The position numbers and the translations under genes were made by a program. From positions 42,313-106,312 of the forward strand of contig HF995314.1 of NCBI GenBank assembly GCA_000432275.1: DNA of 64,000 nucleotides, read 5' to 3'. The notes below the pieces were generated by a model. That model was not told the origin of the DNA and did no database searches. It was given only the letters and a program-made list of their open reading frames with translations. Within the stretch, counting starts at the first letter, position 1. The number at the start of each line of letters is the position of its first letter. The stretch comes from Proteobacteria bacterium CAG:495. Lineage in GTDB: Bacteria; Pseudomonadota; Alphaproteobacteria; RF32; CAG-239. Shown here in pieces: positions 5,381 through 52,807 of this stretch.

Positions 5381-5443
5381 TCCTGTTCAGGGTTTATACC
5401 CAATACTATACCCTCTTTTGCCAAACACGGCAACTGCAAAAAT

Positions 5444-5459
5444 TGGCACAAATATTGCA
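5444..5459 (+). promoter_or_regulatory. sigma-54 (RpoN) -24/-12 promoter, TGGCAC-N5-TTGCA, upstream of flgI
   Basis: Exact match to the TGGCAC-N5-TTGCW consensus at 5444-5459, about 44 nt upstream of the flgI start. Sigma-54 class III flagellar promoters are established in Alphaproteobacteria such as Caulobacter. Confidence 0.6.
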
Positions 5460-5502
5460 TATATTCCGTTTAGATTATTGACTTAATTTATGGGATCACA
5501 AG

Positions 5503-6630: not shown

Positions 6631-6631
6631 G

Positions 6632-6985
6632 ATGGAAGCATTAAACAGCGCAATGACCTTTGACAATGTCCTGTACGGGCTGAAAAAAGCCCCGCAGGCA
6701 AATGCGGCCGATCTGAAAAAAGAAAAGGATATGGCCAAAATAGAAAAGACGGCAGAAGACTTTGAAGCGTTTTTCATTACCAAAATGATGGAAAGCATGT
6801 TTGAAGGAATTTCCACCGACGGAATGTTCGGCGGTGGACATGCCGAAAAAATTTACCGCTCCATGCTTTTGGACGAATACGGCAAAGCAATGGCCAAAAC
6901 CGGAAGCATCGGTGTTAAAGACGAAGTTATGCGTTCTATTTTAGAAATGCAGGAAATGGAGACCAACGGATATATTCAAGGATAA
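6632..6985 (+). CDS. flgJ: flagellar rod-binding protein (FlgJ N-terminal domain type / CheL-like)
   Basis: 117-aa Rod_binding-type sequence (EAFFITKMMESMFEGI...GGHAEKIYRSMLLDEYGKAMAK) immediately after flgI, as in Alphaproteobacteria. Confidence 0.75.
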   Translation: MEALNSAMTFDNVLYGLKKAPQANAADLKKEKDMAKIEKTAEDFEAFFITKMMESMFEGISTDGMFGGGHAEKIYRSMLLDEYGKAMAKTGSIGVKDEVMRSILEMQEMETNGYIQG

Positions 6986-11676: not shown

Positions 11677-14600
11677 TTACAGGCACTTGATATATTGCCA
11701 ATTGGTCGAGGTTGAGGTTTTGCAAACCAGAGCCGTCGTATTCGGACAAGAGGACGACGAGTAGCTCGGACCGTCACATTTACAATATTTTCCGTAAGTG
11801 ACGTTGGTCTCTTTATCTACGCAGACATCACTTTCATCCAGCCCCAGAATTGATCCGCAGGATGCCGGCGTAAATGTCGGATCGCTTCCGGATACCGGTT
11901 TGGAACGTTCAGAACAGACAATGTTCCCGGAGGCGCCTGCAACCTCAGAAGTATTGATATTTTTGCAGGTTGCGTCGGTTTTGTTATAAGCTGTGGGACA
12001 ACGGCAAACCTTATAACGGGTTTCAGTCGCGCCTCCGGCAAATTCAAAGGTTTTGCCATCGCTGAGTTCATTGGGTTCCGGACAATTTTCGCGGGTATAT
12101 TTCCAGGTACTTTCAATGTCAGCTTTGGGATACAGACAGGCATATTTTGTCGGCTGGTCGCATCCGGGACTGCAAGTGCTGTAGTTTTTGGGATGACCGC
12201 ATTGTCCGACAATAGCCGAAAGACTGGCAATGCTGTATGACGAACAGTCTGCCGGAACACACGGCTCCGGTTCCGGCTCGGGACAAGAGCCTGCAACATA
12301 TTTGGTCGACTTGGAGCCGTCGGCATTAATCGACGTGCAGGAATCCGCACCGGGCTGAATATTGGAGGTACAGGTTACCGTATATGAGCTGCCGCACAGA
12401 CAAGCCTTATAGCGTGTGACAGACTCTCCGTCGACCGTCGTCGTACAGCCGTTGGATAATGTATATTTGGCCGCATTGTTGGCGTCGTCTCCGTCATCGG
12501 TTCCGTCGCATTTGTACTTATAGGCTTCACCGCAACCGCAGCTTTTGTACTTTTGAGTCTGAACCTTCTGATTTCCGACATATTTTATCTCGGTGCAAAC
12601 CTCGCTCTTATCCGTGGGAATAGCTCCGGTTTCGGCACAGGTTTTAGAATACTCGTCTCCGCAGACGCAGGATTTGTAATAAGTTACGGTATCACCATCG
12701 GCATTGGTGGTTTGGCAGGCGTCATCTTCTGACCCCGGAGACTGGCCGTTGCCGTCACAAGTTTCGGAATACTGACTGCCGCATTCGCATTTGGAATAGA
12801 CGGTCTCCCCGCTTTCTCCCGTTGCCAGCAGCGGCGTACAGGGCGTACCCTTGACGTTTTTGGCGGGACATTGCAGATAATTTGCCGGGCATTTGCATTC
12901 CTTGAAAAGTTTGCTGCCGTTTTCGTCAATGCAGAAATCCTCACCCAGAGCGTCGGCCTGATAGCCGGAGCAGACATATTTATAGCCGTTGGCCTTGCAA
13001 TCTTTCGTATCCTGACATTCGGCGTATTTGGTGGTACCGTCCGAACTGGTACAGCTGCGCCCCATGCCCACCTGCTGTTTGGTACAGGTTTTGTAAATGC
13101 TTTCTTCGTCTTCGGTACAGGTATTTTCACCGGTACAGGCACTGTAAACCGTACCTCGTTCATTATCTACGCAGGTAGTGGCATTTTCGGCCGGAGAAGT
13201 TGAACTGCAACTGGTGTAGTTGGCCGGACAACGGCATTTATACATCATCTGATTGTCTTCTCCGAGGCACGGATCATATTTTTCCTGATTAGCGGCGCAA
13301 GCCTTTTGATGCTGATCGCTGCAGGCTGCCGCAGGTTTGGTACAGGACTGATAATAGGACACGCCGTCGACAACACAGGCCGAACCAACGCCGGTTTCAC
13401 CGTCTCCGCAGACTTTGTTATAGCCGGAGGCGCAGGTACAGCTTTCAAAATAAATCTTGTCGTTTTTGGTGCAGGGGTTAACGCCAACCTGCAAGGGATC
13501 GTTACAAGTCAGGTATTCGCCTTTGATGCACTCGCTTTGGGCTTTGCAGCTTTCATAGTAGTTTTCGCCGTTCAGAGAACAGGGCTTGCCCTCGCCAACC
13601 TGATTGGAAGAACATTTGCTCCAGCCGTCAGGACACTTACAGCTTTTATAGGCATAAATTTCACCCTGGTTATCCTGACAGGGGTCTACGCCTATCTGGA
13701 AATCGCCCTTGCATTGCTCGGTGTGCTGCCAGGTACACTGGCTGGCTTCACACTGGTAGTATTTTCCGCCGCAGCCGTTAGGTTTGGTGACGCCGGTCGG
13801 CTTGGCTCCGCCGGGACAGCCGTAATAATTGTCAACCCAGTTTTCCGGCAGTTCGTCTTTTTTGCATTCGCAGGCCTGATATTTGCCGTTGCAGGGTTCG
13901 CCAACGCCGACATACCGTTCTCCGTCGCAAACCTGATTGTAGTCTTCGGAACATTCACAGTAAGCGAAGAACTTCAGGCTGGTGACGCCGGCGGGAATGG
14001 TTCCGTCATTGTTTTCCGACGTAACCTCCTGCTCGCAGCCGCCGCCGTTTAACAGTCCGGCACAATTGTAGCGGTGATATTTATAGGCGGAATGACATTT
14101 GCACTCTTTATAGTAGCGTTTGCCGTTAATAACAATGCTGCCGCCGCCGAGAATGTGTCTGACCGGGCAGTTGTCGTCGGTCCACTTATATTCGCCGGGG
14201 TTAAAGTAGCAGTTAAAGCGGCGGATGTCGGGATCGTTGCGGTCTTCACACAAACGGGCTTCGGCACCGTCGCCGAGCTTCTGGCGGCATTCGCTTTCGC
14301 TCTTGGTTACAATAACCTGATAACCGTTGGTGTTGTCACCATCCTGATAACACTTTTCAAAGCTTCCGACTTTGCACATTCCCGTCTTATATTGCTTATC
14401 CGGGCTGGGATTGCTTGAAGCGTCGTATTTTCCGGCATAGCAGTATTTTTCGCCGCTCGGTTCTACCTGCGGATAGCGGCAAACTTCGCTGTAGACGGAA
14501 GTATCGCAGCTGCATTCATAATACGAAGTCGTTTCGTTGTCCTTGGTACAGGCTATTGCCGTTGCCGCGGTTCCCAACAATGTCTGGCAGGCGCCTTCAG

Positions 14601-16557
14601 AAGTTGCCAGAACGGCGCCCTCATTACATTTGCGCGCTTTACAAGACTGATAGTAGGTTATGCCGTCCACGGAACAAGCCGGGTGTTCGGCATCTACAAC
14701 CGGAGACAGATTATCTTCGCTGTCACAGGTCAGACGGCTGTCATAGGCGGAAGGACAATAACATTTATTGCGAATGACATGGTTGTCGCTGCATTGTTCA
14801 TAAACGGCACCCTGCCCCAGCTCCCACTGGCAGGCGCGATTATCGGAGATATCGTCTTCCATAATCGTGCCGTTGGACGACCCGCTGCTCGGCAACAGGC
14901 TGCACTTGGGATAACAATACTGATACTTGGTTTTGGCATAGGTTTCGCCCTCAAGCTGGCACATAAAACCGGTGCCTTCCTTATTGGCGGCGGCACACTG
15001 GGAATCAGTCAGATAGCTGGCCGGGCAATCGCAATAATAACGAACGTTCTCTTCCAAGGCCTGTCCGTTGGCATAACAGGTTTTGACATTAATTCCCTTA
15101 ACCCCGTCAAACGAGCAGGCATCTTCCGTGTAAAACAACGGGCGGTCCGCAGGACATCCCTCTTCATAGCTTTTAAACTTGGCATCGCCGTCATAAGTAC
15201 AAACTTCTCCGACACCGACTGCGGTATCAGAAGGAACTGCAGTGTAAGTGGAAGGACATCCGCATTCATAACGAACCTGCCCGTTGGTAACGCATACGGT
15301 TGTCGTTGCAGCATCTTCGCCTACTTTCGGACAACCGTCGGCAGTATCTACAACAGGACGGGCTGCCGTGTTAATACGACAATTTTTAGCGCAGGTTTCA
15401 TAATAGGTTTTACCCTGTTCCTGAACCTTACAACTGTCTCCGCCGCCGGCTTCGCCCTCGCCGCAGACTGAAAACGTATTGGGGCATTCGCACATATATT
15501 TGATTGTGGCAGGTTCGTCAGCCATATAGCACTGGGTTGCCGTAGTTGCGGTACCGCCCACCGTCTGACATTCAGCCATACTGTCCACCAATACCATATT
15601 TTCGTCACACTGAATAGCGCTGCGATTCAGCATACAGGCGGCATATTTTTCGCCACCGTCAAAAGTACAGGCCTGACCACCGCCCAAATTTCCGGGACAA
15701 ACGGTATAGTTTTCCGGACAGCTGCAACGATAACGCAGGCTTTGATCCGGCATAACGCACAAGACGGCATTCGGGGTATCAAAACTGTTTACCTTACATT
15801 CATCAATATTGGATTTAACGCTGCCGGCGGCAATATCCTCCTGAGAACAAGGTGCCGCGCAGATGTTTTTAACAATTCCGTCATAGTTGCAGGTGCTGAC
15901 GGCCGTCTGACCCGCGGGGCAGGCTCCTTCGGTATAATCCAAATCGGTAGGACAACTGCAGCTGTAAGAAGCCTTTTCGGCAAATTCTTCGGTAAAGCAC
16001 AAACCAGAATCAACGATGTTGTCTACAATTTTGCTGCAGGCTCCGGCTTCGTTCAACAACACAAAGTCCGAAGAGCATTCGGCATCTTCACTGGAAGTGT
16101 CGTTACCCTTGAAGCTACAGCACTGAGTTGCCGCGGCAGAGCAATCAGAGACTTTTTTCTTATTGTCATCGGCACAATAATCATAGGTATAAGAAAGCGG
16201 CGTTCCCTCGCTGCACAGCCCGGTCGCCTCATCGGTGATGAAAGTTCCCAGTCCCAGACAGCTGCTGTTAATTACAGCTCCCGAACTTTTGAACTGACAG
16301 CACATCTGAGTATCATTGCCGCATTTGTTTTTAAGCATAAAACTGTCGGCACAGTAATACGAAGCGTCTTCCTGACAGGTTCCGTCGGCGTTTACCTTGA
16401 ACGGTTCGTCAATACAGTCATATTTTGAACCATCCTTTTGGCGACAGCACTCTCGCCCGATAACATAACGGTTGTAATCATCACCGCTCTCGTTATCGGC
16501 AGCCAAAGGAGTTGCTTCGACCGCCCACGGAGAAATCGGGGGACTGATGCGCGACAA
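11677..16557 (-). CDS. giant Cys-rich repeat protein, C-terminal 1,626-aa fragment (frame open upstream to 16611; listed start is TTG inside a duplication)
   Basis: About 1 in 10 residues is Cys by eye. About 20 copies of the Y-x2-C-x-C-[PG]-x2-Y-x3-C module. No signal peptide of its own. Confidence 0.7.
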   Translation of the reverse strand: MSRISPPISPWAVEATPLAADNESGDDYNRYVIGRECCRQKDGSKYDCIDEPFKVNADGTCQEDASYYCADSFMLKNKCGNDTQMCCQFKSSGAVINSSCLGLGTFITDEATGLCSEGTPLSYTYDYCADDNKKKVSDCSAAATQCCSFKGNDTSSEDAECSSDFVLLNEAGACSKIVDNIVDSGLCFTEEFAEKASYSCSCPTDLDYTEGACPAGQTAVSTCNYDGIVKNICAAPCSQEDIAAGSVKSNIDECKVNSFDTPNAVLCVMPDQSLRYRCSCPENYTVCPGNLGGGQACTFDGGEKYAACMLNRSAIQCDENMVLVDSMAECQTVGGTATTATQCYMADEPATIKYMCECPNTFSVCGEGEAGGGDSCKVQEQGKTYYETCAKNCRINTAARPVVDTADGCPKVGEDAATTTVCVTNGQVRYECGCPSTYTAVPSDTAVGVGEVCTYDGDAKFKSYEEGCPADRPLFYTEDACSFDGVKGINVKTCYANGQALEENVRYYCDCPASYLTDSQCAAANKEGTGFMCQLEGETYAKTKYQYCYPKCSLLPSSGSSNGTIMEDDISDNRACQWELGQGAVYEQCSDNHVIRNKCYCPSAYDSRLTCDSEDNLSPVVDAEHPACSVDGITYYQSCKARKCNEGAVLATSEGACQTLLGTAATAIACTKDNETTSYYECSCDTSVYSEVCRYPQVEPSGEKYCYAGKYDASSNPSPDKQYKTGMCKVGSFEKCYQDGDNTNGYQVIVTKSESECRQKLGDGAEARLCEDRNDPDIRRFNCYFNPGEYKWTDDNCPVRHILGGGSIVINGKRYYKECKCHSAYKYHRYNCAGLLNGGGCEQEVTSENNDGTIPAGVTSLKFFAYCECSEDYNQVCDGERYVGVGEPCNGKYQACECKKDELPENWVDNYYGCPGGAKPTGVTKPNGCGGKYYQCEASQCTWQHTEQCKGDFQIGVDPCQDNQGEIYAYKSCKCPDGWSKCSSNQVGEGKPCSLNGENYYESCKAQSECIKGEYLTCNDPLQVGVNPCTKNDKIYFESCTCASGYNKVCGDGETGVGSACVVDGVSYYQSCTKPAAACSDQHQKACAANQEKYDPCLGEDNQMMYKCRCPANYTSCSSTSPAENATTCVDNERGTVYSACTGENTCTEDEESIYKTCTKQQVGMGRSCTSSDGTTKYAECQDTKDCKANGYKYVCSGYQADALGEDFCIDENGSKLFKECKCPANYLQCPAKNVKGTPCTPLLATGESGETVYSKCECGSQYSETCDGNGQSPGSEDDACQTTNADGDTVTYYKSCVCGDEYSKTCAETGAIPTDKSEVCTEIKYVGNQKVQTQKYKSCGCGEAYKYKCDGTDDGDDANNAAKYTLSNGCTTTVDGESVTRYKACLCGSSYTVTCTSNIQPGADSCTSINADGSKSTKYVAGSCPEPEPEPCVPADCSSYSIASLSAIVGQCGHPKNYSTCSPGCDQPTKYACLYPKADIESTWKYTRENCPEPNELSDGKTFEFAGGATETRYKVCRCPTAYNKTDATCKNINTSEVAGASGNIVCSERSKPVSGSDPTFTPASCGSILGLDESDVCVDKETNVTYGKYCKCDGPSYSSSSCPNTTALVCKTSTSTNWQYIKCL

Positions 16558-17848
16558 CGCCCATCGGGGTACTGATGCGCGACAACGCCTGGTTCGTTTC
16601 CTCCAACTCGGTCAAACATAAATGATAACTGCCGCGGACCGTCTTATCTCCGGCACATTCAGGCAGGCAAAGCTGATATTTGACATCAAGAGTGCGGGCC
16701 GAATTGCAGGTCCGTCCTCCGGCAACATATCCGACCGGGCAATCGCTCCGGCTTACGTAAGCGTCTTCTCCGTCCGCCGTTTGCGGGCAGCCGCAGTACT
16801 GAACCAACCGGTTATCGGAAATTACGCTTCCCTCAAGGACGCAGGTGTTCAGAACATCTCCGGCCATTTCACAGCTGTCGGTGCCTTCGGTTACCCGCGA
16901 CGGGCATTTGAGCTGGCAATATTCATAACGCCCCTGAGCTTCATCAATCAATGTCGCCTGTCCGTTTCGGTATGCGCCGTTCCAAATGCAGGCGCCGTTG
17001 AGCGCCGCTACGGCATAATCCGTTCCCTTAGCCGTTTTGCAGGAGGCTTCCGTATAGGGATAAACCTCTTCGTCGCATGCATATATCGTGCGCAGCTTAC
17101 GAGTGCCGTTGTTCATATTCTCGTAGCAGGAGCCGGCAACTTTGGTTCCCGCGAGCAATGCGGAAGTAGCCGGCGTGTCGTCGCCGAGGGTTTTGTTCAG
17201 TTGCTCCGAAGTACAGGCCGCATAATCACATTTCCAGAGCAAGGCTCCGTTCAGGGAACAACTCAATGCCGTTTTGCCGTCAGCGCAGGCCGGGCGTGAC
17301 GTTTCAGTATAAGAACTGTCGCACTGAAAATACAAATAGGGCGTATCATTACTGCTGCATCGACCGGCCTCGACACCCAAATTGTTGTCTACGTTGGTAT
17401 ACTTCTGAGCAATTGCCGATATTGAGCGGGAAATGGACACGCTGTCAGAGCCGGACACGGCCTCCCCCGTTCCGATGCCGCCGGTACAGGTTTCAAGATA
17501 GGTACAGGTTCCCTTGCTGCCGTCATCACAAAGCGTGTAGCTGACCTTATCGGTATCGACGCCCAAAGCCGTGGCGCAAAGGTTTTTGGCCGCAGCCTCG
17601 CCTCCTTCGGCAGAGATGGTTACCGGGCCGCAGGCAGGGAGATTGGCCCCTTCGTATGTTGACGTATGAGAAGTGTCTTCGTCGTCGGACGTACCGGCAC
17701 TGCCTGCAGAACCGGAGCTTCCGGCATTTTTGACGCTGAAGTTGCTGTTAAACGGAGTGTCCGCAATCGGCGTTACCGCCGCCAAAGCCAGTTCCGCCGC
17801 AGCAAAAAGTGACACTAAAACGAGGAGAATCTTCTTCATTTTCAACAT
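16493..17848 (-). CDS. giant Cys-rich repeat protein, N-terminal 451-aa fragment with signal peptide
   Basis: N-terminus MLKMKKILLVLVSLFAAAELALA (Sec signal), a GSSGSAGSAG linker, and a Cys-rich body containing YCGCPQT. The C-terminus runs into the 28-bp duplication. Confidence 0.7.
   Translation of the reverse strand: MLKMKKILLVLVSLFAAAELALAAVTPIADTPFNSNFSVKNAGSSGSAGSAGTSDDEDTSHTSTYEGANLPACGPVTISAEGGEAAAKNLCATALGVDTDKVSYTLCDDGSKGTCTYLETCTGGIGTGEAVSGSDSVSISRSISAIAQKYTNVDNNLGVEAGRCSSNDTPYLYFQCDSSYTETSRPACADGKTALSCSLNGALLWKCDYAACTSEQLNKTLGDDTPATSALLAGTKVAGSCYENMNNGTRKLRTIYACDEEVYPYTEASCKTAKGTDYAVAALNGACIWNGAYRNGQATLIDEAQGRYEYCQLKCPSRVTEGTDSCEMAGDVLNTCVLEGSVISDNRLVQYCGCPQTADGEDAYVSRSDCPVGYVAGGRTCNSARTLDVKYQLCLPECAGDKTVRGSYHLCLTELEETNQALSRISTPMGVVAHQSPDFSVGGRSNSFGCR
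16534..16589. repeat. 28-bp tandem direct duplication (2 mismatches) at the junction of the two Cys-rich ORFs
   Basis: Copy at 16534-16561 is aatcgggggactgatgcgcgacaacgcc. Copy at 16562-16589 is catcggggtactgatgcgcgacaacgcc. Period 28 = 3n+1. Confidence 0.85.
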
Positions 17849-43919: not shown

Positions 43920-45851
43920 ATGGTTGCGATTAAATTACCCGATGGGTCAAGTATGAATATGGAGAGCGGTGTCAACGGCTTTGACATTGCCAATAAAATC
44001 AGTCCGAATCTCGCTAAAGCTGCTTTAGCTATCACCGTAAACGGCAAGACACAAGATTTGAGCACTCCTATCACTACCGACGCAACCGTAACAATCATTA
44101 CCGGTAAAGATAAAGAGGGCCTGCACATCATCCGTCACTCTTGCTCACACGTGATGGCCGAAGCCGTCAAAGAACTGTGGAAAGACGTTCAGGTTACCAT
44201 AGGCCCTGCTATTGAAAACGGCTTTTATTACGATTTTGCCCGCAAAGAACCGTTTACGACGGAGGATTTTGCCAAAATCGAAGAGAAAATGCACGAAATC
44301 GTTAAACGTGACGAAAAGGTCGAAAGAATTGTTATGCCGCGTAACGAAGCCATCAAGTTCTTCAAAGATATGGGAGAACATTATAAGGCCGAAATTATTG
44401 AGGATTTGCCGGAAGATGAAGTTATTTCCCTTTACAGACAGGGTGACTTTACCGATCTTTGCCGCGGTCCCCATGTTCCTTCGACCGGAAAAATCGGCGA
44501 TGCATTCAAACTGATGAAAGTTGCCGGCGCTTATTGGCGCGGCGATGCCAGCAAAGAGATGCTGCAACGCATTTATGCAACGGCCTGGGCCGACAAAAAA
44601 GATTTGAAAGCTTATCTGGAAATGTTGGAAGAAGCCGAAAAACGCGATCACCGCAAGCTCGGCAAAGAAATGGATTTGTTCCATTTTGAACCGGAATATG
44701 CCCCGGGTGCGGTTTTCTGGCATGACAAAGGCTACAAAATCTACCGCAAGCTGATTGAATATATGCGCAAACGCCAGGAAAACAACGGCTATATCGAAAT
44801 TGCAACGCCGCGCATTATGGACCGCTGCCTGTGGGAGACTTCCGGCCACTGGGATAAATACGGCGCTCACAACTATTCGGGCAAAACCGAAGACAACAAA
44901 CAATTTTGCGTTAAGCCGATGAACTGCCCGGGCGGTCTGCTGGTTTACAAGCAGGGAATTAAATCTTACCGCGACCTGCCGCTGCGTGTGGCCGAATTCG
45001 GTATGGTAAACCGTTATGAAGCTTCCGGCTCGCTCATGGGGTTGATGCGGGTGCGCGAATTTACCCAAGACGATGCTCACATCTTCTGCACCTTGGAACA
45101 AATGGAAGAAGAATGCGTCAAAACCATTAAACTGATTTTGGACATTTATAAAGATTTCGGCTTTAATGACGTTAAGATTTATCTGTCAACCCGTCCGGAG
45201 AGTGTTTACCGCATCGGCTCCGACGAGGTCTGGGACATTTCGGAAAAGGCTCTTGCCAACGCATTGGAACATAACGGTTACGAATATGAAATCAATCCGG
45301 GCGAAGGCGCATTTTACGGCCCCAAACTGGAATTTATCCTCAAAGACGCCATCGGCCGCGAATGGCAGTGCGGTACGGTTCAAATGGATATGAACCTGCC
45401 TCAGCGCTTTGACATCTCCTACATCGGCGAAGACGGCGAAAAACATCAGCCGGTTATGCTGCACCGTGCACTGTTTGGCTCTATTGAGCGCTTTCTCGGC
45501 ATTCTGATTGAAAATCATGCCGGCAAACTGCCGTTGTGGCTCTCTCCGGAACAGGTTGTGGTCGCACCGATTGTCAGCGACTTTGACGATTATGCCGAAG
45601 AAGTTGTAAGAAAACTCAAAGCTGCCGGAATTTATGCAAGAACTGATTTGCGCAATGAAAAAATCAACTACAAAATCAGAGAACATTCTGTAGCGAAAAT
45701 TCCGGTTATTGCCGTTGTCGGTGCAAAAGAAAAAGAAAACGGCACGGTTACCGTTCGCCGAATTGGCTCTGACAAACAGGAAGTTATGAAGTTGGACGAC
45801 TTTATTTCGGCATTGACAGAAGAGGCAAAAATGCCGTCACAAGACCGCTAA
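43920..45851 (+). CDS. thrS: threonine--tRNA ligase ThrS
   Basis: TGS domain N-terminus, class II aaRS motifs and a C-terminal anticodon-binding domain. 643 aa. Confidence 0.95.
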   Translation: MVAIKLPDGSSMNMESGVNGFDIANKISPNLAKAALAITVNGKTQDLSTPITTDATVTIITGKDKEGLHIIRHSCSHVMAEAVKELWKDVQVTIGPAIENGFYYDFARKEPFTTEDFAKIEEKMHEIVKRDEKVERIVMPRNEAIKFFKDMGEHYKAEIIEDLPEDEVISLYRQGDFTDLCRGPHVPSTGKIGDAFKLMKVAGAYWRGDASKEMLQRIYATAWADKKDLKAYLEMLEEAEKRDHRKLGKEMDLFHFEPEYAPGAVFWHDKGYKIYRKLIEYMRKRQENNGYIEIATPRIMDRCLWETSGHWDKYGAHNYSGKTEDNKQFCVKPMNCPGGLLVYKQGIKSYRDLPLRVAEFGMVNRYEASGSLMGLMRVREFTQDDAHIFCTLEQMEEECVKTIKLILDIYKDFGFNDVKIYLSTRPESVYRIGSDEVWDISEKALANALEHNGYEYEINPGEGAFYGPKLEFILKDAIGREWQCGTVQMDMNLPQRFDISYIGEDGEKHQPVMLHRALFGSIERFLGILIENHAGKLPLWLSPEQVVVAPIVSDFDDYAEEVVRKLKAAGIYARTDLRNEKINYKIREHSVAKIPVIAVVGAKEKENGTVTVRRIGSDKQEVMKLDDFISALTEEAKMPSQDR

Positions 45852-45872
45852 TCTGTAGCTTTTGTTTTAGAA

Positions 45873-45908
45873 AATCCCTTTCTTTTCCGAAAAGAGAGGG
45901 ATTTTTTT
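45873..45908 (+). terminator. rho-independent terminator after thrS
   Basis: 14-bp stem (one G-U) AATCCCTTTCTTTT / AAAAGAGAGGGATT followed by a T7 run. Confidence 0.75.
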
Positions 45909-46011
45909 GTCCTTAGGGGTTAAGTTATGATTGACTCGTTTTGGTCGTTTTGATATACTGAAAGAGGAACAGCGGGTTCCGGTTTTCTTTTATTATCTGA
46001 GGACGACGGCC

Positions 46012-47463
46012 ATGAGAAACAGCAAGCTTTTTACTTTTATGCTATGTATAGGCACTATTCATTCCGGAACGGTAAAAGGCTTTGTGCCTCCAGCTTCCAC
46101 CGATGATATAATTACACACACCGACCTTACGCCGGAACCCCTGGCCGCCGTCGACAACGCTTATCGCCTGGCCGCAACCTGGTGGCTTCCCGACTGGCAG
46201 GATTCTCAAAAGTCGCGCGGCAACCAATGTGAGGGCGGCGTATGCGAAGGCGGAGACCTTAAAGGCGACTGCGGTAACTATGGGTTATACCAAACCTGCC
46301 CTTCTCCAAAGCTTTCAACCGGCATTACTCATCCGACGTCAGATTTGACTTGTCAGAAGTCTTGCTACTGTCCGGCCAATTATCAGTACACTTCTTCCAA
46401 CTGTTCGGGCAACCGGGAGCCTTCCGGTGGTTCCTGTGACGGAAAATACAATGCCTGCAGTTGTAAAAAGGAATTTAAATATAACAGTTCAAACTGCAAC
46501 GGCGAAAACGAACTCGGCGGAACCTCTTGTGACGGAAATTACAATTCCTGTACGGTTCGTCCCGAATGTACGGTTTCTTCAAAATCATGCACTTACGGAT
46601 GCAAGACTTACAATTCATGCGACCGATGCACCGAATGCAAAACCAATCCCGACTGCGACGTGTCGTCAAAGTCCTGTACCTACGGCTGCGCTTCATACAA
46701 CAGTTGTTCCAAGTGTACTTCCTGCAAAGAGAATCCCGATTGCAGCGCGACGCCGGTTTCTTGTACTTACGGCTGCGCCTCAACCAACTCCTGCGGCATC
46801 TGTATCTCATGCGCGGGCAATCCGGACTGCAACGTCAGTTCCAAATCCTGCGATTACGGCTGTTCTTCTTACAACTCCTGCGACAAGTGCATTTCCTGTA
46901 AATCCTGTACGCCATACTCAGATGAGACAGGATGTTCTTACGGAAGTTACTCTTGTTCTGACGGATGCGGCGGTACCAGAACCTGTTGTTCGCCGAAACC
47001 GTCTGATCCTTGCGCATCCGTTTCCTGCGGGTCTAACGCATATTGTTCCGGCGGTTCCTGCTATTGTGATTCCGGTTATGAAGGCAATGCTTACAGCGGC
47101 TGCACCAAGACGGATCCCTGTGCCGGCATCAGCTGCCCCTCGAACAAGAGCTGCACTTACGGATGTGCTTCTTACTCCAGTGCTACATCCTGTTGTTCGT
47201 CTGTTTGTACCGCTTGTAAATCGGCACCGCAACCGGAGCCCAGTCCCTCCCCCAGCCCGAGTTCTTCTCCAGAACCGAGTTCATCGCCTGAACCTGTCGA
47301 GCCGTCCAAACCTTCTGAAGCTCAATGCCGAAAAATGTATCCGGACTATAATGAGTGTGTCTGGGGTGGCAGCGGTTGTAAGATATGTGACGACAGGTCT
47401 TTCCGTATGCCGGCTCCCTGTGATGACTATTTTTATCAAGAAGCCCGCTGTGCATCATGGTAA
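46012..47463 (+). CDS. secreted Cys-rich repeat protein (paralogous module to the giant protein) with 4 x 29-aa tandem repeats and a P/S/E-rich linker
   Basis: Start at MRNSKLFTFMLCIGTIHSG (signal-like) after GAGGA. Contains C-x-C-P-x-N-Y modules (SCYCPANYQY, ACSCKKEFKY), four NPDC-x5-SC-[TD]-YGC-x-S-[YT]-NSC-x2-C-x-SC repeats and a PQPEPSPSPSPSSSPEPSSSPEP linker. Confidence 0.7.
   Translation: MRNSKLFTFMLCIGTIHSGTVKGFVPPASTDDIITHTDLTPEPLAAVDNAYRLAATWWLPDWQDSQKSRGNQCEGGVCEGGDLKGDCGNYGLYQTCPSPKLSTGITHPTSDLTCQKSCYCPANYQYTSSNCSGNREPSGGSCDGKYNACSCKKEFKYNSSNCNGENELGGTSCDGNYNSCTVRPECTVSSKSCTYGCKTYNSCDRCTECKTNPDCDVSSKSCTYGCASYNSCSKCTSCKENPDCSATPVSCTYGCASTNSCGICISCAGNPDCNVSSKSCDYGCSSYNSCDKCISCKSCTPYSDETGCSYGSYSCSDGCGGTRTCCSPKPSDPCASVSCGSNAYCSGGSCYCDSGYEGNAYSGCTKTDPCAGISCPSNKSCTYGCASYSSATSCCSSVCTACKSAPQPEPSPSPSPSSSPEPSSSPEPVEPSKPSEAQCRKMYPDYNECVWGGSGCKICDDRSFRMPAPCDDYFYQEARCASW
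46558..46905 (+). repeat. four diverged in-frame tandem repeats of 87 bp (29-aa Cys-rich units)
   Basis: Peptide units RPECTVSSKSCTYGCKTYNSCDRCTECKT, NPDCDVSSKSCTYGCASYNSCSKCTSCKE, NPDCSATPVSCTYGCASTNSCGICISCAG and NPDCNVSSKSCDYGCSSYNSCDKCISCKS. Confidence 0.8.
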
Positions 47464-48236
47464 CGGAAAACGAGCTTATAGATAAGATTGCGGCATATAT
47501 GCAAAACAATGCAACGCTGTGCCCGCTTGTTTTTGACGAACATAATCTCGTCTATGATTATGTTCGTCAGGGACTGCTCAACATTGCCGATTTCTTTATT
47601 GAACAAACGCAAAAAGCTTTTGCTTCGCTTAAGGTTGAAGACATTGTTCTGGCCGGAGGCATTGTTTCTTATATTTACAACGACCAAACCGACATCGACC
47701 TCGGGATTGTTGTCTGCCCCGAAACCGACGGTTACAATCCAGATATGGTGCAGCAAATGTTTCGTTATGTTAACCGCGCCTTTCCCCAAAAGGGATACAG
47801 ATTTAACCTGTTTGCCAGAAACATTGATTACGGGCTGGTAGAACCATCCCACTTTTTTCATGGAAGCGGAACATACTCACTCTCCGAAAACCGCTGGCGG
47901 CAAATGCCGGTACACCGCGAGTTTACTTATTCTCCGCAAGAGTTATTCGAATACTACAAAGATTACTGTGACAAAGTACATCACTTTGTAAACACTTTAC
48001 CGAAAGTGGAAGACAAATGGCTGACTTTTGAGAGCTGCCGGAGGCTGGAGGCTCATTTGGACGCCCTTAAGAAAGACGCCCTGCTGCTCAAAGAAAACGG
48101 ACCGGAACAAGAATACGGCATGGAATACAACTGTCACAGAATCTTCAACAAATTAGGCGTTTACGGACATTTCAAATCAATTATAACCGAAGCGCATTAC
48201 CAACTCGTCAATGTTTTGGAGCTCCGCGATGAATGA
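47457..48236 (+). CDS. nucleotidyltransferase-fold protein 1 (Pol-beta superfamily; ANT(4')/Lnu-like size and motif)
   Basis: The motif G-G-I-V-S-Y-I-Y-N-D-Q-T-D-I-D fits hG[GS]-x9-13-D-h-[DE]. 259 aa. Its start overlaps the stop of the upstream Cys-rich gene (ATGGTAA). Confidence 0.65.
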   Translation: MVTENELIDKIAAYMQNNATLCPLVFDEHNLVYDYVRQGLLNIADFFIEQTQKAFASLKVEDIVLAGGIVSYIYNDQTDIDLGIVVCPETDGYNPDMVQQMFRYVNRAFPQKGYRFNLFARNIDYGLVEPSHFFHGSGTYSLSENRWRQMPVHREFTYSPQELFEYYKDYCDKVHHFVNTLPKVEDKWLTFESCRRLEAHLDALKKDALLLKENGPEQEYGMEYNCHRIFNKLGVYGHFKSIITEAHYQLVNVLELRDE

Positions 48237-48975
48237 CGACAATGACGACTTAATCCGCTTTGCCTCGGAGATTTTAACCGTACGCGACGAACTTGACCCC
48301 AGGGTGTTCAACCGGAATGGGGCCGTTCACGAACACTTGCGGCTGCGGATGCTGGACCGGGCAGACTATCTGGTTAAGGAGACGGTCGGGATGATTGACG
48401 GTCTGCTGACCGGCGACGTTGTGCTGTTAGGGTCTTCCGCCTCTTATTTTTACCGCCCGGGCTCTGACTTTGACGTCAAGGTGGAAATCATCAATCAAAA
48501 CTGCCCTTACCTGCCCAAAGACACCAACGGGATGGACAAGTTTCTGGCTTTGGCGGGAGGAGAATTCTATACCCGGAACAAATATTTTTACATCGGCAAC
48601 CGTTTTTTGGATATGAAGCTGGCGGCCTATATTATGGACGTGGCGTGGACCGGGGTTTATTCCCTGAATGAAAACAAGTGGCGGATTGAACCGAAAAACA
48701 ATCTGACGAAAGGTTTTACGGTCGACTCGCTGATAGATTACTACCACCAGCGTTGTGCGGAGATTGACGCCTTTATGGGGTCGCTGCCGCAAAAGGACGG
48801 AAAGTACGGCAAGGAAGAATGCCAGAAGATGTTTGACTATTACCGCACCCAGGTGCTGGGAAGAAACCAGACGATTGAGGACTATCTCGCCTTTAAGCTG
48901 ATTAAGGCCACCAGAAAACTTAAAAACCTCGGCGGCTTCATCTTCGCTCAACAGATGAAGATTTTTGATTTCTAG
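48229..48975 (+). CDS. nucleotidyltransferase-fold protein 2, paralog of protein 1
   Basis: LLGSSASYFYRPGSDFDVKV NTase motif. Conserved blocks shared with protein 1 (YSL-S/N-ENRWR, DYY..C..IDAFMGSLP). Start ATG at 48229 overlaps the upstream stop (ATGAATGA). Confidence 0.65.
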   Translation: MNDDNDDLIRFASEILTVRDELDPRVFNRNGAVHEHLRLRMLDRADYLVKETVGMIDGLLTGDVVLLGSSASYFYRPGSDFDVKVEIINQNCPYLPKDTNGMDKFLALAGGEFYTRNKYFYIGNRFLDMKLAAYIMDVAWTGVYSLNENKWRIEPKNNLTKGFTVDSLIDYYHQRCAEIDAFMGSLPQKDGKYGKEECQKMFDYYRTQVLGRNQTIEDYLAFKLIKATRKLKNLGGFIFAQQMKIFDF

Positions 48976-49067
48976 GCCTGTTTTTATTGCACTTTGTCAA
49001 AAACTATGATAGTGGCTTGATATCAAAATTATAGATATCTGAATTATTAATTTAAACTTCAAAAAAA

Positions 49068-49835
49068 ATGAAAACTTTTAGATTTAGAAAAACAACAACG
49101 TCTGAGATTGCTTCAAAGATTATGTCTGTCAAACGGCGCAAGGGCCGTTATGAACTGAAACTGGAAAACGGCAAAACCTATTTTCTGCCTCAGGAAACAT
49201 TGCCCAAAGACGTTGCTCCCGCATACGGAGACATTTTTGCTCTGGGGTTCTGTATGGATATGATTACGATAATCCGTCTTAACGACCGTATCGTTTTTGA
49301 ACTCACTCCGGAACAGCTTGTCGAAAAACTCGAGAACAACTGTAAATTACTGGCAAACATTATCCGCAAGCAGGAAGAAAAGGCAATTTCGCTGCAAAAT
49401 CAAATTGAAATCAGAAAACTGCCGGCCTTGTTGCAATTGTGGCTCGCGGAAGCGCGTCTGGCATACCTCGGCGCGTATGCGGAAAAAGAACTTCGCCTGG
49501 TTGAAACCTGCAAAAAAGCGTTTGTCTTGTACAGGTATTTTCAAAATCTAAATAAAACATCGTTTTCGCGCGAAGATGACGACTTTATCAATCTAATCAA
49601 AACGCCCAACAACGAAATTTGGCCGAATCCGGGCAATGAGAGTTATCCTCTGGTCTGCGAAGCCGCAGACTTGGCAAACAGACTGCTGGCTGACGCTTTT
49701 GACAACGGAATCGATATTTTCGACCGGAACGATTGTCTGCGACGGAAACAACATTCTGCCACTCTCGGTTACCGGACCGAAGAGATGAAAAAACATCTTG
49801 CGACGAAGGAAATTCAGACAGCCGAACGACTTTAA
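49068..49835 (+). CDS. hypothetical protein (255 aa), possible distant member of a local paralog family
   Basis: Uninterrupted ORF after an AT-rich intergenic region. The helical KLPALLQLWLAEARLAYLG segment resembles the LPAIF(Q/R)HR block of the two downstream genes. Confidence 0.55.
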   Translation: MKTFRFRKTTTSEIASKIMSVKRRKGRYELKLENGKTYFLPQETLPKDVAPAYGDIFALGFCMDMITIIRLNDRIVFELTPEQLVEKLENNCKLLANIIRKQEEKAISLQNQIEIRKLPALLQLWLAEARLAYLGAYAEKELRLVETCKKAFVLYRYFQNLNKTSFSREDDDFINLIKTPNNEIWPNPGNESYPLVCEAADLANRLLADAFDNGIDIFDRNDCLRRKQHSATLGYRTEEMKKHLATKEIQTAERL

Positions 49836-49974
49836 TCCGACGTTTGAAATCCAATTATCAAAAAATGTGAAAGAGCCGTTTCAAAACGGCTCTTTTTTTA
49901 TTGCTTTTAGCCGAGGATATGATGTAATTGTAATAAATTCACATATTATAAATTCACTATTATATTAAAATCTT

Positions 49975-50715
49975 ATGATAACATCCAAAATTACATCCGT
50001 TATTAAAAAGGCGGAACGACTTAACACCTCGTTTAACCTTTTGCTGACTTGCGGTATCAGCCTCGAGTTAAGCTTTTTAGATGCAAAAGACTTTCAACCG
50101 AAAGCGGGAATGCGTGCAGAAGCGACATTTTTAAATTACATTCCGATGATGCTGACGATAAACGGAAACGTTATGTTCTCGCGCAGCAAAACCGACGTTT
50201 TTTATGAGATGAGGCATTTGCTTTCTGCTCTGGAAACAGAAATTCAAGCCGAAAAAATAGAACAAGGGCGACTGGAATTTCAGGAGAGGAAGTCTCATCT
50301 GCCGGCCATTTTTCAGCACCGGATACTGCTGTTGCAATCTGCAATCGGCAGCCGGTATACCCAAGAGGAATGGAAAGACGAGCTTTGCGGAATGGAGCTG
50401 GCACAGAAAATTCATACCGACACCGTGTTTCAATCTAAACGGGCACCTTTGAGCTTTTATGCAAAAAGCGCCATAATCCGCAGATATCCGGAAGCGGCGG
50501 CCTATCACAGCGGCGTGGTGGAATATGCCATCCAGTTGTCCAACACGCTTTCCGAAGACGAAGCATCGGGAATTAAAACAGATGATTTTGAGCAGATAAA
50601 AGAGAAGACTTCTTTCAGCAGAACCTTGCGACAGGAAACGCTGAAGGGAGACGTTCCTTCAATCTCAGACATTATCCGTTATCACCAATCTCTGATTTAT
50701 CAGAACAAATCGTAA
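49975..50715 (+). CDS. hypothetical protein (246 aa), paralog of 50724..51197
   Basis: Shares HLPAIFQHR...YPEAAAY blocks with the next gene. Confidence 0.55.
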   Translation: MITSKITSVIKKAERLNTSFNLLLTCGISLELSFLDAKDFQPKAGMRAEATFLNYIPMMLTINGNVMFSRSKTDVFYEMRHLLSALETEIQAEKIEQGRLEFQERKSHLPAIFQHRILLLQSAIGSRYTQEEWKDELCGMELAQKIHTDTVFQSKRAPLSFYAKSAIIRRYPEAAAYHSGVVEYAIQLSNTLSEDEASGIKTDDFEQIKEKTSFSRTLRQETLKGDVPSISDIIRYHQSLIYQNKS

Positions 50716-50723
50716 TCTGCCGT

Positions 50724-51197
50724 ATGGAAACAAGTATCTCCTGCGGATTCAACAAGATTATCCGCGAAAAGATAGCGGCCTACCGGCGGGAAGAACACCA
50801 ACTGAAACAGCGTTTGTCCGCCCTTCCCGCCATTTTCAGGCACAGATTTAAATCTTGCGAAATGCACATCAAGGGATTTAACTATTTTTTTGCAGCGACG
50901 GAAATCGCCTGTTGCGAGTTGGCTCTGGCATTGTACAAAACGGTGCCGGCAGAAGCATATTCCCGGATAGGGGACAAAGAGCTGCAAAAATTCGGCGGTT
51001 GTCTGAATACGGAACAGCGTTGGTATGCCCTGAGCCTGGCCAATGCCCTGTCTGCCGACGGAATTACCAAACCGGCGCTGCCGCATTTGGAGAAGTTTCA
51101 TGTTATGAGGCTTCACCCTTTGGGAACGTACGAGAGTTATGCTGACATGATTGTGCGTATTTTCCGTTATCGGAAAAGTTCTGCCTTTGCGGCGTAA
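50724..51197 (+). CDS. hypothetical protein (157 aa), short paralog of 49975..50715
   Basis: ALPAIFRHR...VPAEAY blocks. Starts 9 nt after the preceding stop. Confidence 0.55.
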   Translation: METSISCGFNKIIREKIAAYRREEHQLKQRLSALPAIFRHRFKSCEMHIKGFNYFFAATEIACCELALALYKTVPAEAYSRIGDKELQKFGGCLNTEQRWYALSLANALSADGITKPALPHLEKFHVMRLHPLGTYESYADMIVRIFRYRKSSAFAA

Positions 51198-51344
51198 AAA
51201 CAATCTTATTAATCAACAGTCCGGAACCTTTTATTCCGGGCTGTTTTTTTACGGACAATATTTCACGCTTGATATTTAGATAAGGAAAGCCTAAATTTAT
51301 AGGAAGATATTATGAATCAAAGTAAAGCAAAGGCATGACAGGTT

Positions 51345-51797
51345 ATGAATGAAAACTTACCGGAATTGCGGGATATTCATCTGCCGGACGGCGTTTCGGC
51401 CTGGCCGCCGGCTTATGGCTGGTGGGTCATTCTGCTGGGTATTGTCGCCGTTGTCATCCTTGTGGAGCTGGTGACGGTTATCCGCCGAAAGTCTAAGAAG
51501 CTCTATGCTCTGCATCTGCTCAAAGGCATTCACTGCAACAACTCTATCCGCTCTGCCGCTGACATGTCCGCCATTTTGCGCAGGATATGCGTGTATAAAT
51601 ACAAAGAAGCTTCCGTCCTGATGGGAAAAGAATGGCTGAGCTTTCTTAACGAACACAGCAAACACAAGCTGGAGGGCAAAGCGGCACAGCTGCTTTTGGA
51701 TGCGCCGTACATCCAGCCGGGCGCAAAAGGGTATCGAACCGAAGACGTTGCCGCTTTGAGGCTGTTCTGCCAACAGTGGATTGGAGAAAACCTATGA
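51345..51797 (+). CDS. membrane-anchored protein of Bat-operon type (DUF4381-like)
   Basis: Single TM (WWVILLGIVAVVILVELVTVI), about 150 aa. Its stop overlaps the batA start (ATGA). This position is characteristic of BatA-operon leaders. Confidence 0.5.
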   Translation: MNENLPELRDIHLPDGVSAWPPAYGWWVILLGIVAVVILVELVTVIRRKSKKLYALHLLKGIHCNNSIRSAADMSAILRRICVYKYKEASVLMGKEWLSFLNEHSKHKLEGKAAQLLLDAPYIQPGAKGYRTEDVAALRLFCQQWIGENL

Positions 51798-52807
51798 ATC
51801 AGTTTGCTTATCCGTGGGCTTTCGTATTGTTGCTGCTGCCTTTTGCCGTCCGCTTTGCATTGCCGGTGGTCAAGGGGCTTCACGGCGATGCGCTGAAAAT
51901 CCCCTTTTTGAAAGATTTGGAAAAAATATCCATTAAATCCGGCAGCTTATGGCAGATGGGAAGCGCCTCCGACGAGAAACATTTTTCCAAATTCTTCTGG
52001 ATGCTCATGATTGTCTGGGCCTTGCTGGTGACGGCCGCAGCCCGGCCGCAATGGGTCGGCGAGCCAATCAGAATCAAAAACGAGAGCAGAGACATTTTAA
52101 TGGTTTTGGACATTTCAACCTCGATGTTGGAAAGGGATTTTGCATTTCAGGGGCAGGCCATTGACCGTTTGACGGCGGTAAAACTGGTGGCCGGCGATTT
52201 TATCAAAAAACGAGCCAATGACAGAATCGGGCTGATATTGTTCGGAACCCGGGCTTATTTGCAGGCTCCGCTGACTTTTGACCATCAATCGGTTAACAAA
52301 ATCTTGTGGGAAATGGATGCCGGAATGGCGGGAAACTCTACTGCAATCGGCGACGCTTTGGGACTGGCCCTGAAAAACCTGAAAGACGTGCCGAATCCGG
52401 ACAATAAAGTTATTATCCTGCTCACCGACGGAGAAAACAACGACGGAAGCATGTCGCTGGCGCAGGCCGTCAAACTGGCCCGTGACGCAGGGATTAAGGC
52501 TTATACCATCGGGGTTGGCAGTCCGAACAACTTTTTTGCCTCTTTTATGGGGATGAAAATGTCCGGTTTTCAGCAGGGGTTGGATGAAAAAGGCCTTAAA
52601 GAACTTGCCGACGCCACCAAAGGGGCGTACTTTAAAGCGGAAGATACCGCCGGTTTGCTTAAAATTTACCAGACGATTGACAGTTTGGAACCCAGTCAAA
52701 ACGACGCCAAATTCGTGAGAGAAACCAAAGAACTTTACTACATTCCCCTGTTGGCGGCGATTTTGACGGGTTTTGCCCTGGTTGTCGCTTTGCGGAGGAT
52801 CAGCTGA
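51794..52807 (+). CDS. batA: vWA-domain aerotolerance-type protein BatA
   Basis: N-terminal TM pair and a vWA domain with MIDAS residues (DISTSM...LTDGENNDG). Confidence 0.8.
   Translation: MNQFAYPWAFVLLLLPFAVRFALPVVKGLHGDALKIPFLKDLEKISIKSGSLWQMGSASDEKHFSKFFWMLMIVWALLVTAAARPQWVGEPIRIKNESRDILMVLDISTSMLERDFAFQGQAIDRLTAVKLVAGDFIKKRANDRIGLILFGTRAYLQAPLTFDHQSVNKILWEMDAGMAGNSTAIGDALGLALKNLKDVPNPDNKVIILLTDGENNDGSMSLAQAVKLARDAGIKAYTIGVGSPNNFFASFMGMKMSGFQQGLDEKGLKELADATKGAYFKAEDTAGLLKIYQTIDSLEPSQNDAKFVRETKELYYIPLLAAILTGFALVVALRRIS

Follow-up and report, generated by a model that had tools for sequence, protein, structure and literature searches.

The window analysed here comprises 64,000 nucleotides of the uncultured human-gut alphaproteobacterium Proteobacteria bacterium CAG:495 (assembly GCA_000432275.1, contig HF995314.1, positions 42,313 to 106,312) and carries a pair of neighbouring genes, here called NT-A and NT-B (NTase-1 and NTase-2 of an initial annotation made from the sequence alone), which encode tandem paralogous nucleotidyltransferases (NTases). 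The pair belongs to a large, uncurated and structurally unsolved branch of the DNA polymerase beta (Pol-beta) superfamily that is most abundant in (environmental) phages. It is inside this superfamily by motif and fold, and outside the aminoglycoside NTase (ANT)/Lnu, minimal NTase (MNT)-HEPN, cGAS/DncV-like NTase (CD-NTase) and RlaP families. Judged by their motifs, both proteins are catalytically intact, and their genes make up the downstream end of a conserved cassette, in which a gene for a secreted repeat protein is followed by NT-A and then by one to three copies of NT-B. The Pol-beta superfamily itself is known; new are the uncurated NTase family, the distinctive way in which its A and B genes are arranged, and the partner found beside them in the genome. 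As to function, we tentatively propose, while giving it less than an even chance, that NT-A and NT-B form a cytoplasmic A/B hetero-oligomeric NTase that has a functional link with the exported protein of the same transcript and most plausibly nucleotidylylates a protein, the substrate being the weakest step of the proposal.

The two open reading frames (ORFs) that had been reported are present on the forward strand (Table 1). Their overlap is 26 nt and would shrink to 8 nt with the ATG at 48229, which is a possible start of NT-B because the members of its cluster are 248 aa long. The quoted catalytic motifs were recovered as well, AGGIVSYIYNDQTDIDLGIVV in NT-A (G67-G68, D79, D81) and LLGSSASYFYRPGSDFDVKVEI in NT-B (G74-S75, D86, D88), with a different residue between the two aspartates (D79-I-D81 versus D86-F-D88), and so were two common downstream blocks, GTYSLSENRWR/GVYSLNENKWR and EYYKDYCDKVHHFVNTLP/DYYHQRCAEIDAFMGSLP. 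The proteins had been described as diverged paralogs, about one quarter identical by eye; BLASTP gives 27% identity over 181 aa with an expect value (E) of 7e-20, far beyond chance, so the paralogy is real. Clade-specific hidden Markov models split the A type from the B type, and the two are distinct clades. Within an alignment of 14 sequences that holds orthologs of both paralogs (A1), G67, D79, D81 and the third acid (D124 in NT-A, D134 in NT-B) are all invariant, as are S141, L142, W147 and P151. This third acidic residue had been set beforehand as a check by the initial annotation; its presence is a trait of the superfamily and is not diagnostic for resistance enzymes. Neither protein has a signal peptide, and their isoelectric points (pI) are 5.2 for NT-A and 6.0 for NT-B, with a median of 5.0 in the phage clade.

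The fold was approached with an AlphaFold2 model of NT-A built on A1, which has a mean predicted local distance difference test (pLDDT) score of 91.8 and a predicted template modelling score (pTM) of 0.83. In this model, a helix (residues 34-54) precedes a strand (58-66) that ends before G67-G68, and a further strand (80-88) contains D81, with D79 just before it. These are followed by a helix (95-111), by strands 116-118 and 121-128, the latter with D124, by a hairpin (139-149) bearing the YS..W signature and by four C-terminal helices between residues 160 and 258. As modelled, NT-A is a canonical Pol-beta NTase core with a helical domain, in agreement with the two-domain layout that had been read from the sequence. 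When the model was run against the PDB with Foldseek, no match was found at E<=1e-3; the top matches are all Pol-beta-type NTases (CdnG, CdnC, ANT(6), AAD(9), ANT(4'), OAS1, PAPD1, TUT7 and MNT), which, together with the motifs, upholds the assignment to the superfamily. Global template modelling (TM) scores to the NTases of the PDB range from 0.19 to 0.30, with the good match confined to the core, and the best core match (2rff) has a probability of 0.99 over 95 columns with a root mean square deviation (rmsd) of 5.0. Since the global TM scores are low (0.2-0.3), only the core is common to the pair and the solved NTases.

None of the Pfam, NCBIfam and PADLOC models or PDB sequences gave a meaningful match for NT-A or NT-B. 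Below the Pfam threshold, NT-B reaches PF22600 at E 0.052 and NT-A has no match to an NTase family; matches to RecA and L18 in the direct family search were discarded as noise. The sole library match of the pair is phrog_36119, to which no function is assigned (E 3.6e-8 for NT-A and 1.4e-4 for NT-B). A word-indexed search of 5.8 billion proteins, the reach of which is limited by the word index, returned only 12 and 7 relatives, and a later search with the family profile (A2) added 3. The exhaustive profile search of 1.84 billion cluster representatives (clusters defined at 50% identity) gave 3,463 clusters at E<=1e-3, of which 2,141 remain at E<=1e-10. Among predicted viral structures (BFVD), Foldseek retrieved 11 uncharacterised proteins of uncultured phages at E<1e-8, including A0A6J5P8X5, A0A6J5LH47 and A0A8S5T042 (uncultured Caudovirales), with the seven best matches at E 5e-17 to 6e-14 and a query TM score (TMq) of 0.64-0.76. 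A scan of IMG/VR with the phage-clade alignment gave at least 600 loci, and tblastn found weak relatives (23-27% identity) in Lak megaphages and in the cyanophages S-CRM01 (g125) and DSL-LC03, the last of which is annotated as "nucleotidyl transferase domain containing protein". The profile, BFVD, IMG/VR and tblastn results are the grounds for placing the pair in a large, phage-rich Pol-beta branch; the literature searched held nothing on the locus or the family.

Family members are mostly 245-260 aa long, with some two-domain fusions of 450-530 aa and a few members embedded in long proteins. Among 62 of them, the Pfam models found are MTPAP-like_central (24), NTP_transf_2 (23) and Polbeta (17), with a best E of 4e-6 over all three, and longer relatives match PF01909 at E 3.8e-10 and PF22600 at E 1.8e-11. 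S141 and W147 are invariant in all 62, P151 is kept in 59, and the position of the third acid holds D or E in 43. The profile of these 62 members gave marginal core matches only when run against PDB sequences (2rff, DrrA, 1ylq, MNT and Gld-2). NT-A and NT-B show the full set of family traits, namely a length of ~250 aa, the G[SG]/DxD/acid triad, the Y-S-[LIV]-x-x-[ND]-x-W-x-x-x-P hairpin and the C-terminal helical domain. The phage proteins (those of phrog_36119, the BFVD entries, S-CRM01 g125, DSL-LC03 and the Lak ORFs) are of the same family, with the triad and the YS..N.W...P signature in common, but they differ from the pair in being single-copy, not A/B paired and without a secreted Cys-rich partner.

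For the genomic context, loci were taken from contigs encoding relatives and from scans of genomes and metagenomes, and they represent 12 distinct lineages (the window, L005/L010, L006-9, L011, L003/L012, L001, L013, L014, L015, L016, L127 and L125), in which NT-A identity falls from 62% to 25%. The named source records among them are all metagenome-assembled genomes (MAGs) of Alphaproteobacteria (one "Azospirillaceae", one fecal MAG). Each of the 12 has a single A gene with one to three B genes behind it, as A-B-B in L013 and as A with a fused B-B in L127; a further array, L044, cut by the contig end, reads A-B-B-B. Directly 5' of the array and on the same strand, a repeat-protein gene is present in 12/12 lineages, and its product has a signal-peptide-like N-terminus (signal peptides were judged by inspection) wherever the 5' end is on the contig. 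This upstream protein contains 5.6-12.7% Cys in 11 lineages and is an LRR_5 protein in L125. Measured distances between the upstream gene and NT-A run from -7 to +14 nt, apart from 204 nt in L015; in the window, the stop codon of the Cys-rich gene overlaps the start of NT-A (ATGGTAA). The other flanks vary, with thrS in the window, der and pssA in L005-L009, addAB in L001, and ymdB and zapA in L003. Since all other neighbours differ, the three-part cassette has moved as a unit between chromosomal sites in gut Alphaproteobacteria. A scan of viral contigs with A1 did not find the A/B clade.

In the window, the upstream partner most likely starts at the ATG at 46012, which is preceded by GAGGA. 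Its product consists of a signal-peptide-like N-terminus, four 29-aa repeats with six Cys each, other Cys repeats, a linker rich in Pro, Ser and Glu and a six-Cys C-terminal domain ending in CASW; it contains 65 Cys, 16.8% Ser, 7.2% Thr and 6.0% Tyr. It falls into no family of Pfam, PHROGs, NCBIfam or PADLOC, and its Cys-rich counterparts at the other loci match no Pfam family either. The C-terminal motif, E-A-Q-C..Y...C...C.C....P..C......C.SW, recurs in L001, L003, L005, L006, L011 and L127. In L125, on a contig with a GC content of 37%, a signal-peptide protein of the LRR_5 (BspA-like) type (4990-5994) stands 6 nt before an A-B fused NT (P0034, 6001-7479), which suggests that export and repeats, and not the Cys content as such, define the class of the partner. 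Elsewhere in the window, two adjoining reverse-strand ORFs are also rich in Cys, one of 1,626 aa (11677..16557; 9.6% Cys, no Pfam match) and one of 451 aa (16493..17848; 6% Cys). The longer one weakly shares (E 4e-4) the repeat type C.C..Y.Y..NC.G...GG.C.GKY..C.C with the 483-aa cassette protein and is not beside any NT gene. The genome thus carries a lineage-specific family of Cys-rich repeat proteins, only one member of which is coupled to the NT pair.

The composition of the arrays bears on how A and B would work together. At most loci A and B both keep the G[SG]/DxD/D residues, and both are intact in the window. Arrays with extra copies or fusions contain one NT unit without an intact triad, with the YS..W...P signature kept in every unit and at least one B intact. 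The degenerate units are the A of L013 (1423-2172; G-D, E.S and H), the first B of L044 (454-1215; D.N and R) and the A half of the L125 fusion (6001-6729; K at the third acid), and a unit of this kind looks, from its residues, like a pseudo-enzyme subunit. Fusion proteins occur both as A-B (P0026, P0034) and as B-B (P0021, P0028, P0032, P0036, P0079). Degenerate units and fusions together make the pattern that is expected of an obligate hetero-oligomer with one subunit able to turn structural. From the distinct A and B clades, the fixed A-then-B order, the A-B and B-B fusions and the degenerate units beside an intact B, we infer that the two proteins form a heteromer.

The initial annotation had likened the pair to ANT(4')-Ia and Lnu(B), which would make the proteins aminoglycoside or lincosamide NTases. 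There are points in common with ANT(4')-Ia (kanamycin nucleotidyltransferase, KNTase; 1kny, 6un8), ANT(6), AAD(9), AadA and, by analogy, Lnu(B): the length is similar (~255 aa in the pair, ~250 aa in these enzymes), a core is followed by a helical C-terminal domain, the triad is complete, and ANT(6), AAD(9) and ANT(4') are among the weak Foldseek matches (E 5e-3 to 5e-2 for the ANT(4') structures 6un8, 1kny and 4ebk). However, global superposition with ANT fails, with TM scores of 0.19-0.23 and rmsd values of 10.8-18.5 Å to 6un8, 1kny, 6p06 and 4ebk (TM 0.19-0.24 over the ANT enzymes as a whole). The likeness is limited to the common core, because these scores are no better than those to CD-NTases, OAS1 and the terminal uridylyltransferases (TUTs). 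NCBIfam, which includes NCBI's resistance-gene models, has no ANT or Lnu model that matches NT-A or NT-B, there is no Pfam match, and no ANT or Lnu chain came up among PDB sequences (E up to 10) when NT-A, NT-B or the 62-member profile served as the query. A search of 72,556 plasmids found no homologs of the pair, which is chromosomal and always an A/B hetero-pair. It shares a conserved operon with a secreted repeat protein and stands in no resistance or mobile-element context, and the family occurs mostly in environmental phages. The specific likeness to ANT(4')-Ia and Lnu(B) is therefore without sequence, structural, plasmid or context support, and a role in antibiotic resistance is very improbable.

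At 254-259 aa, the proteins differ in size from minimal MNT antitoxins (~100-140 aa) and from CD-NTases (>300 aa), as had been pointed out. The minimal NTases and MNT antitoxins (2rff, 1ylq, 8xeo and 5yep, MntA) have the same G-S...DxD chemistry and give the best local core match, and 2rff is among the best sequence matches of the family profile (E 0.002), but they lack the C-terminal helical domain and the YS..W..P hairpin and are paired with a HEPN toxin. A best match to the HEPN-MNT clade, which the initial annotation had named as contrary to its reading, was not obtained, with MNT aligning over ~95 core residues only and no HEPN partner. When a neighbour with the HEPN motif Rx4-6H was sought, the flanks held the NT paralog or the secreted protein and PADLOC was blank. 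A HEPN-like RRLEAH in the NT-A helix 191-214 was rejected, as it is not conserved in the orthologs of A1.

The CD-NTases (CdnC 6u7b, CdnG 8yjy, DwCdnB) and OAS1 share the core and helical layout and have the lowest Foldseek E values among solved structures, CdnG and CdnC (~2e-3) coming before the aminoglycoside NTases. This would suit a small-molecule NTase or a nucleotide-signal synthase, that is, a modifier of metabolites or envelope precursors or a CD-NTase-like messenger synthase. Small substrates would be in keeping with the acidic surface and intact triad, and one relative fused to glucosaminidase and peptidoglycan-binding (PG_binding_1) domains hints at an envelope context. We nevertheless consider such a role quite improbable: the pair is shorter (~255 aa) than the CD-NTases, with TM scores to them of 0.24-0.30, PADLOC applied to the pair and four neighbouring genes gave no match to CD-NTases, to cyclic-oligonucleotide-based antiphage signalling systems (CBASS) or to other defence models, no effector or Cap gene lies nearby, and no biosynthetic genes are conserved beside the pair.

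Proteins are the substrate of two further Pol-beta-fold enzymes, GlnE and the AMPylation domain of DrrA/SidM. In GlnE, a homologous pair of NTase domains stands in tandem, a layout that parallels the A/B pair and the A-B fusions, and KNTase, an aminoglycoside enzyme, works as a dimer; in their way of working, GlnE (tandem NTase domains acting on a protein) and KNTase would by analogy be nearest to the pair. The matches of the pair and its family to GlnE and DrrA are marginal and core-only: DrrA matches the family profile at E 0.0024 and the N-terminal domain of GlnE (1v4a) is at Foldseek rank 45. GlnE and DrrA also differ from the pair in that the GlnE domains are ~440 aa each and that no glutamine synthetase or Rab-type target is in the context here. 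Other hints at a protein rather than a nucleic acid substrate are the acidic pI, neighbours of ClpB-like, Hsp20 and UVR type in phages and an amidoligase fusion as which one BFVD relative is annotated.

In the proposed mechanism, A and B would assemble into a hetero-oligomer in which B always provides an active site, with A probably also active in the window. An NTP and two metal ions would be held by the D-x-D plus D triad, and a nucleotidyl group (e.g., AMP or UMP) would be transferred to a hydroxyl of a protein target. The likeliest target would be the Ser/Thr/Tyr-rich, Cys-rich co-translated precursor before its Sec export, or a factor on which this export or the folding of the precursor depends. 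Modification of an adhesin in the cytoplasm ahead of export has a precedent in HMW1C/HMW1. A more specific version, which we regard as rather unlikely, is that the pair is a writer that nucleotidylylates (e.g., AMPylates or UMPylates Ser, Thr or Tyr of) the hypervariable Cys-rich surface protein before export, and that the phage relatives likewise nucleotidylylate proteins, of the host or the phage, that are connected with a ClpB/Hsp20 proteostasis module.

The phage relatives also provide hints at a different substrate. The most frequent neighbour in 78 IMG/VR loci is a gene with a KTSC domain, found within four genes upstream of the NT gene in 27 and directly at position -1 in 24; the domain was described as RNA-binding in a survey of jumbo phages (PMC7824862). 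Other recurrent neighbours are ClpB/ClpC-like AAA+ proteins (22 loci), Hsp20 (11 loci), a UVR-motif protein and three unannotated families, one of them very acidic, and in DSL-LC03 a "heat shock protein" gene lies directly upstream of the NT relative. Given that the loci are not phylogenetically independent, these associations are hints only. A recurring phage block (L045-L124, e.g., L105 and L098) holds a ClpB-like AAA+ gene on the opposite strand, Hsp20, KTSC, NT and genes for a very acidic ~344-aa protein and for proteins of 133 and ~433 aa; no Pfam or PHROG family was found for the last three.

A KTSC neighbour would fit the reading of the pair as an RNA 3'-end NTase, in which it carries out untemplated tailing or repair of RNA or tRNA like the non-canonical poly(A) polymerases (PAPs) and TUTs, and in which the adjacency to a secreted protein is regulatory or incidental. 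In one relative, the NTase is joined to an Rv2179c-like 3'-5' exoribonuclease domain, the best Pfam model of the relatives is the MTPAP-like central palm (best E 1.8e-11), found along with NTP_transf_2, and the Foldseek matches include TUT7, CutA, PAPD1 and Gld-2-type enzymes. On the other hand, the acidity of the proteins is unusual for RNA-end-binding polymerases, the TM scores to PAP and TUT structures are 0.2-0.28, and repair partners such as an RNA ligase or a kinase/phosphatase are absent, as is a Pfam match to RlaP. An action on RNA also leaves the strict coupling to an exported protein in the 12 bacterial loci unexplained, and we judge it unlikely.

Several observations weigh against the proposal of a hetero-oligomer that modifies its exported partner. 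The KTSC neighbour and the exoribonuclease fusion speak for RNA as the substrate in the family as a whole, and in all 78 IMG/VR loci the NT gene is single-copy and without a secreted partner. Since only the partner is exported and the NTs lack a signal peptide, either the partner would be modified before it passes through Sec, or the link is indirect. The C-terminal motif of the partner is absent from the most distant loci (L013-L016), and the partner in L125 is an LRR protein and not Cys-rich. An AlphaFold2 prediction of the natural A-B fusion P0034, run from the single sequence without an alignment, has a pLDDT of 37 and is uninformative on the heteromer. Finally, among strains of the species, both alleles of a variable patch in NT-A occur with both alleles of the partner C-terminal domain, without a signal of co-evolution.

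This variation was analysed in 24 human-gut metagenome loci (L019-L042), most or all of the same species, that were compared with the window. Identity is 98-100% for NT-B, 86-100% for NT-A and 96-100% for thrS and the downstream genes, and 53-100%, with length changes, for the Cys-rich protein. Among 13-18 strain alleles, the ratio of nonsynonymous to synonymous substitution rates (dN/dS) is 0.25 for NT-A and 0.12 for NT-B, so both genes are under purifying selection. The patch in NT-A is dimorphic over residues 85-104 (47709..47768), reading VVCPETDGYNPDMVQQMF or VAVPDVANADADLIQRLF; further variation is found at residues 172-181 (47970..47999), and the synonymous divergence of NT-A is ~2.5-fold above that of NT-B. 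The dimorphism could stem from recombination or balancing selection.

With its dimorphic NT-A directly behind a secreted repeat protein whose C-terminal domain is allelic, the locus also recalls one for polymorphic toxins, in which NT-A (and NT-B) would confer immunity to a toxin or bacteriocin formed by the C-terminal domain of the partner; alternatively, the pair would be of the MNT antitoxin type. The free recombination of the NT-A and C-terminal alleles argues against toxin-immunity and gives no support for tight co-evolution of a binding interface, and on this ground the reading was rejected. Moreover, the C-terminal domain measures only ~45 aa, a conserved catalytic triad is unexpected in an immunity protein that merely binds, and the MNT variant lacks a HEPN partner, a PADLOC match and the length of MNTs. 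There is hardly any chance that the locus is of this type.

The pair offers a handle on a very large Pol-beta NTase family that has no Pfam or NCBIfam model and no solved structure. Its bacterial branch gives an unusually clear functional clue, namely an obligate A/B arrangement whose translation is coupled to that of an exported, rapidly evolving repeat protein in a prevalent gut lineage (CAG:495 and relatives). A pair that modifies its partner would represent a new route by which surface proteins are modified in human-gut Alphaproteobacteria, and a pair that acts on RNA would be a new class of tailing enzymes common to bacteria and phages. In addition, the result prevents a mis-annotation of the pair as an aminoglycoside or lincosamide resistance gene in surveys of the gut resistome.

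Table 1. Features of the NT cassette and its flanks, in coordinates of the window.
Feature	Position	Strand	Basis or remark
NT-A, 259 aa, A-type subunit	47457..48236	+	ORF listing; protein CCZ31165.1 (exact sequence)
NT-B, 254 aa, B-type subunit	48211..48975	+	ORF listing; 248 aa if the start is ATG 48229
NT-A catalytic motif G67-G68-x10-D79-x-D81	47655..47699	+	G67, D79, D81 invariant in A1
NT-A third catalytic carboxylate candidate, D124	47826..47828	+	Invariant in A1; predicted strand 121-128
NT-A family signature Y140-S-L-x-x-N-x-W147-x-x-x-P151, beta-hairpin	47874..47909	+	Conserved in family members
NT-B catalytic motif G74-S75-x10-D86-x-D88	48430..48474	+	Read from translation; aligned to NT-A motif
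NT-B third carboxylate candidate, D134	48610..48612	+	Aligned with NT-A D124
Cys-rich secreted repeat protein, 483 aa	46012..47463	+	From ATG 46012; ORF listing begins at TTG 45931
Intrinsic terminator, hairpin and U-run after thrS	45869..45907	+	Fold -20 kcal/mol, z -4.4, 0/200 shuffles as good
Sigma-70-like promoter candidate TTGACT-17-TATACT, extended TG	45931..45959	+	Best site in region, 10/12 matches; consensus match only
ORF of 255 aa, no family match	49068..49835	+	Not in conserved cassette of other genera
First terminator-like hairpin downstream of cassette, 12-bp stem and T-run	49869..49896	+	None seen earlier

Upstream, the intrinsic terminator separates the cassette from the gene for threonyl-tRNA synthetase (CCZ31163.1). 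On the other side, the ORF at 49068..49835 is possibly co-transcribed with the pair, because no terminator was seen before 49869. Neither this ORF nor the two that follow it on the forward strand (49975..50715, 246 aa, and 50724..51197, 157 aa) has a match in Pfam, PHROGs, NCBIfam or PADLOC; the latter two are weak paralogs of each other (E 4e-4) with a common LPAIF(Q/R)HR block. The ORFs of the 49068-51197 stretch were considered as members of the cassette and rejected, since they are conserved within the species only and absent in other genera. An Rfam scan of 45700-51400 gave only a sub-threshold match to the Bacillus small RNA ncr1015 (49865..49978, reverse strand; 35 bits versus a gathering score of 60, E 0.024), which overlaps the hairpin at 49869-49896 and most likely reflects merely a bidirectional terminator hairpin. 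Just downstream, the forward-strand region 51345..52807 encodes a DUF4381 protein (E 1.6e-31) and, behind it, a 343-aa protein that reads, from its sequence alone, as a von Willebrand-A/BatA-like membrane protein, and looks like the start of an operon resembling the Bat-type aerotolerance operons.

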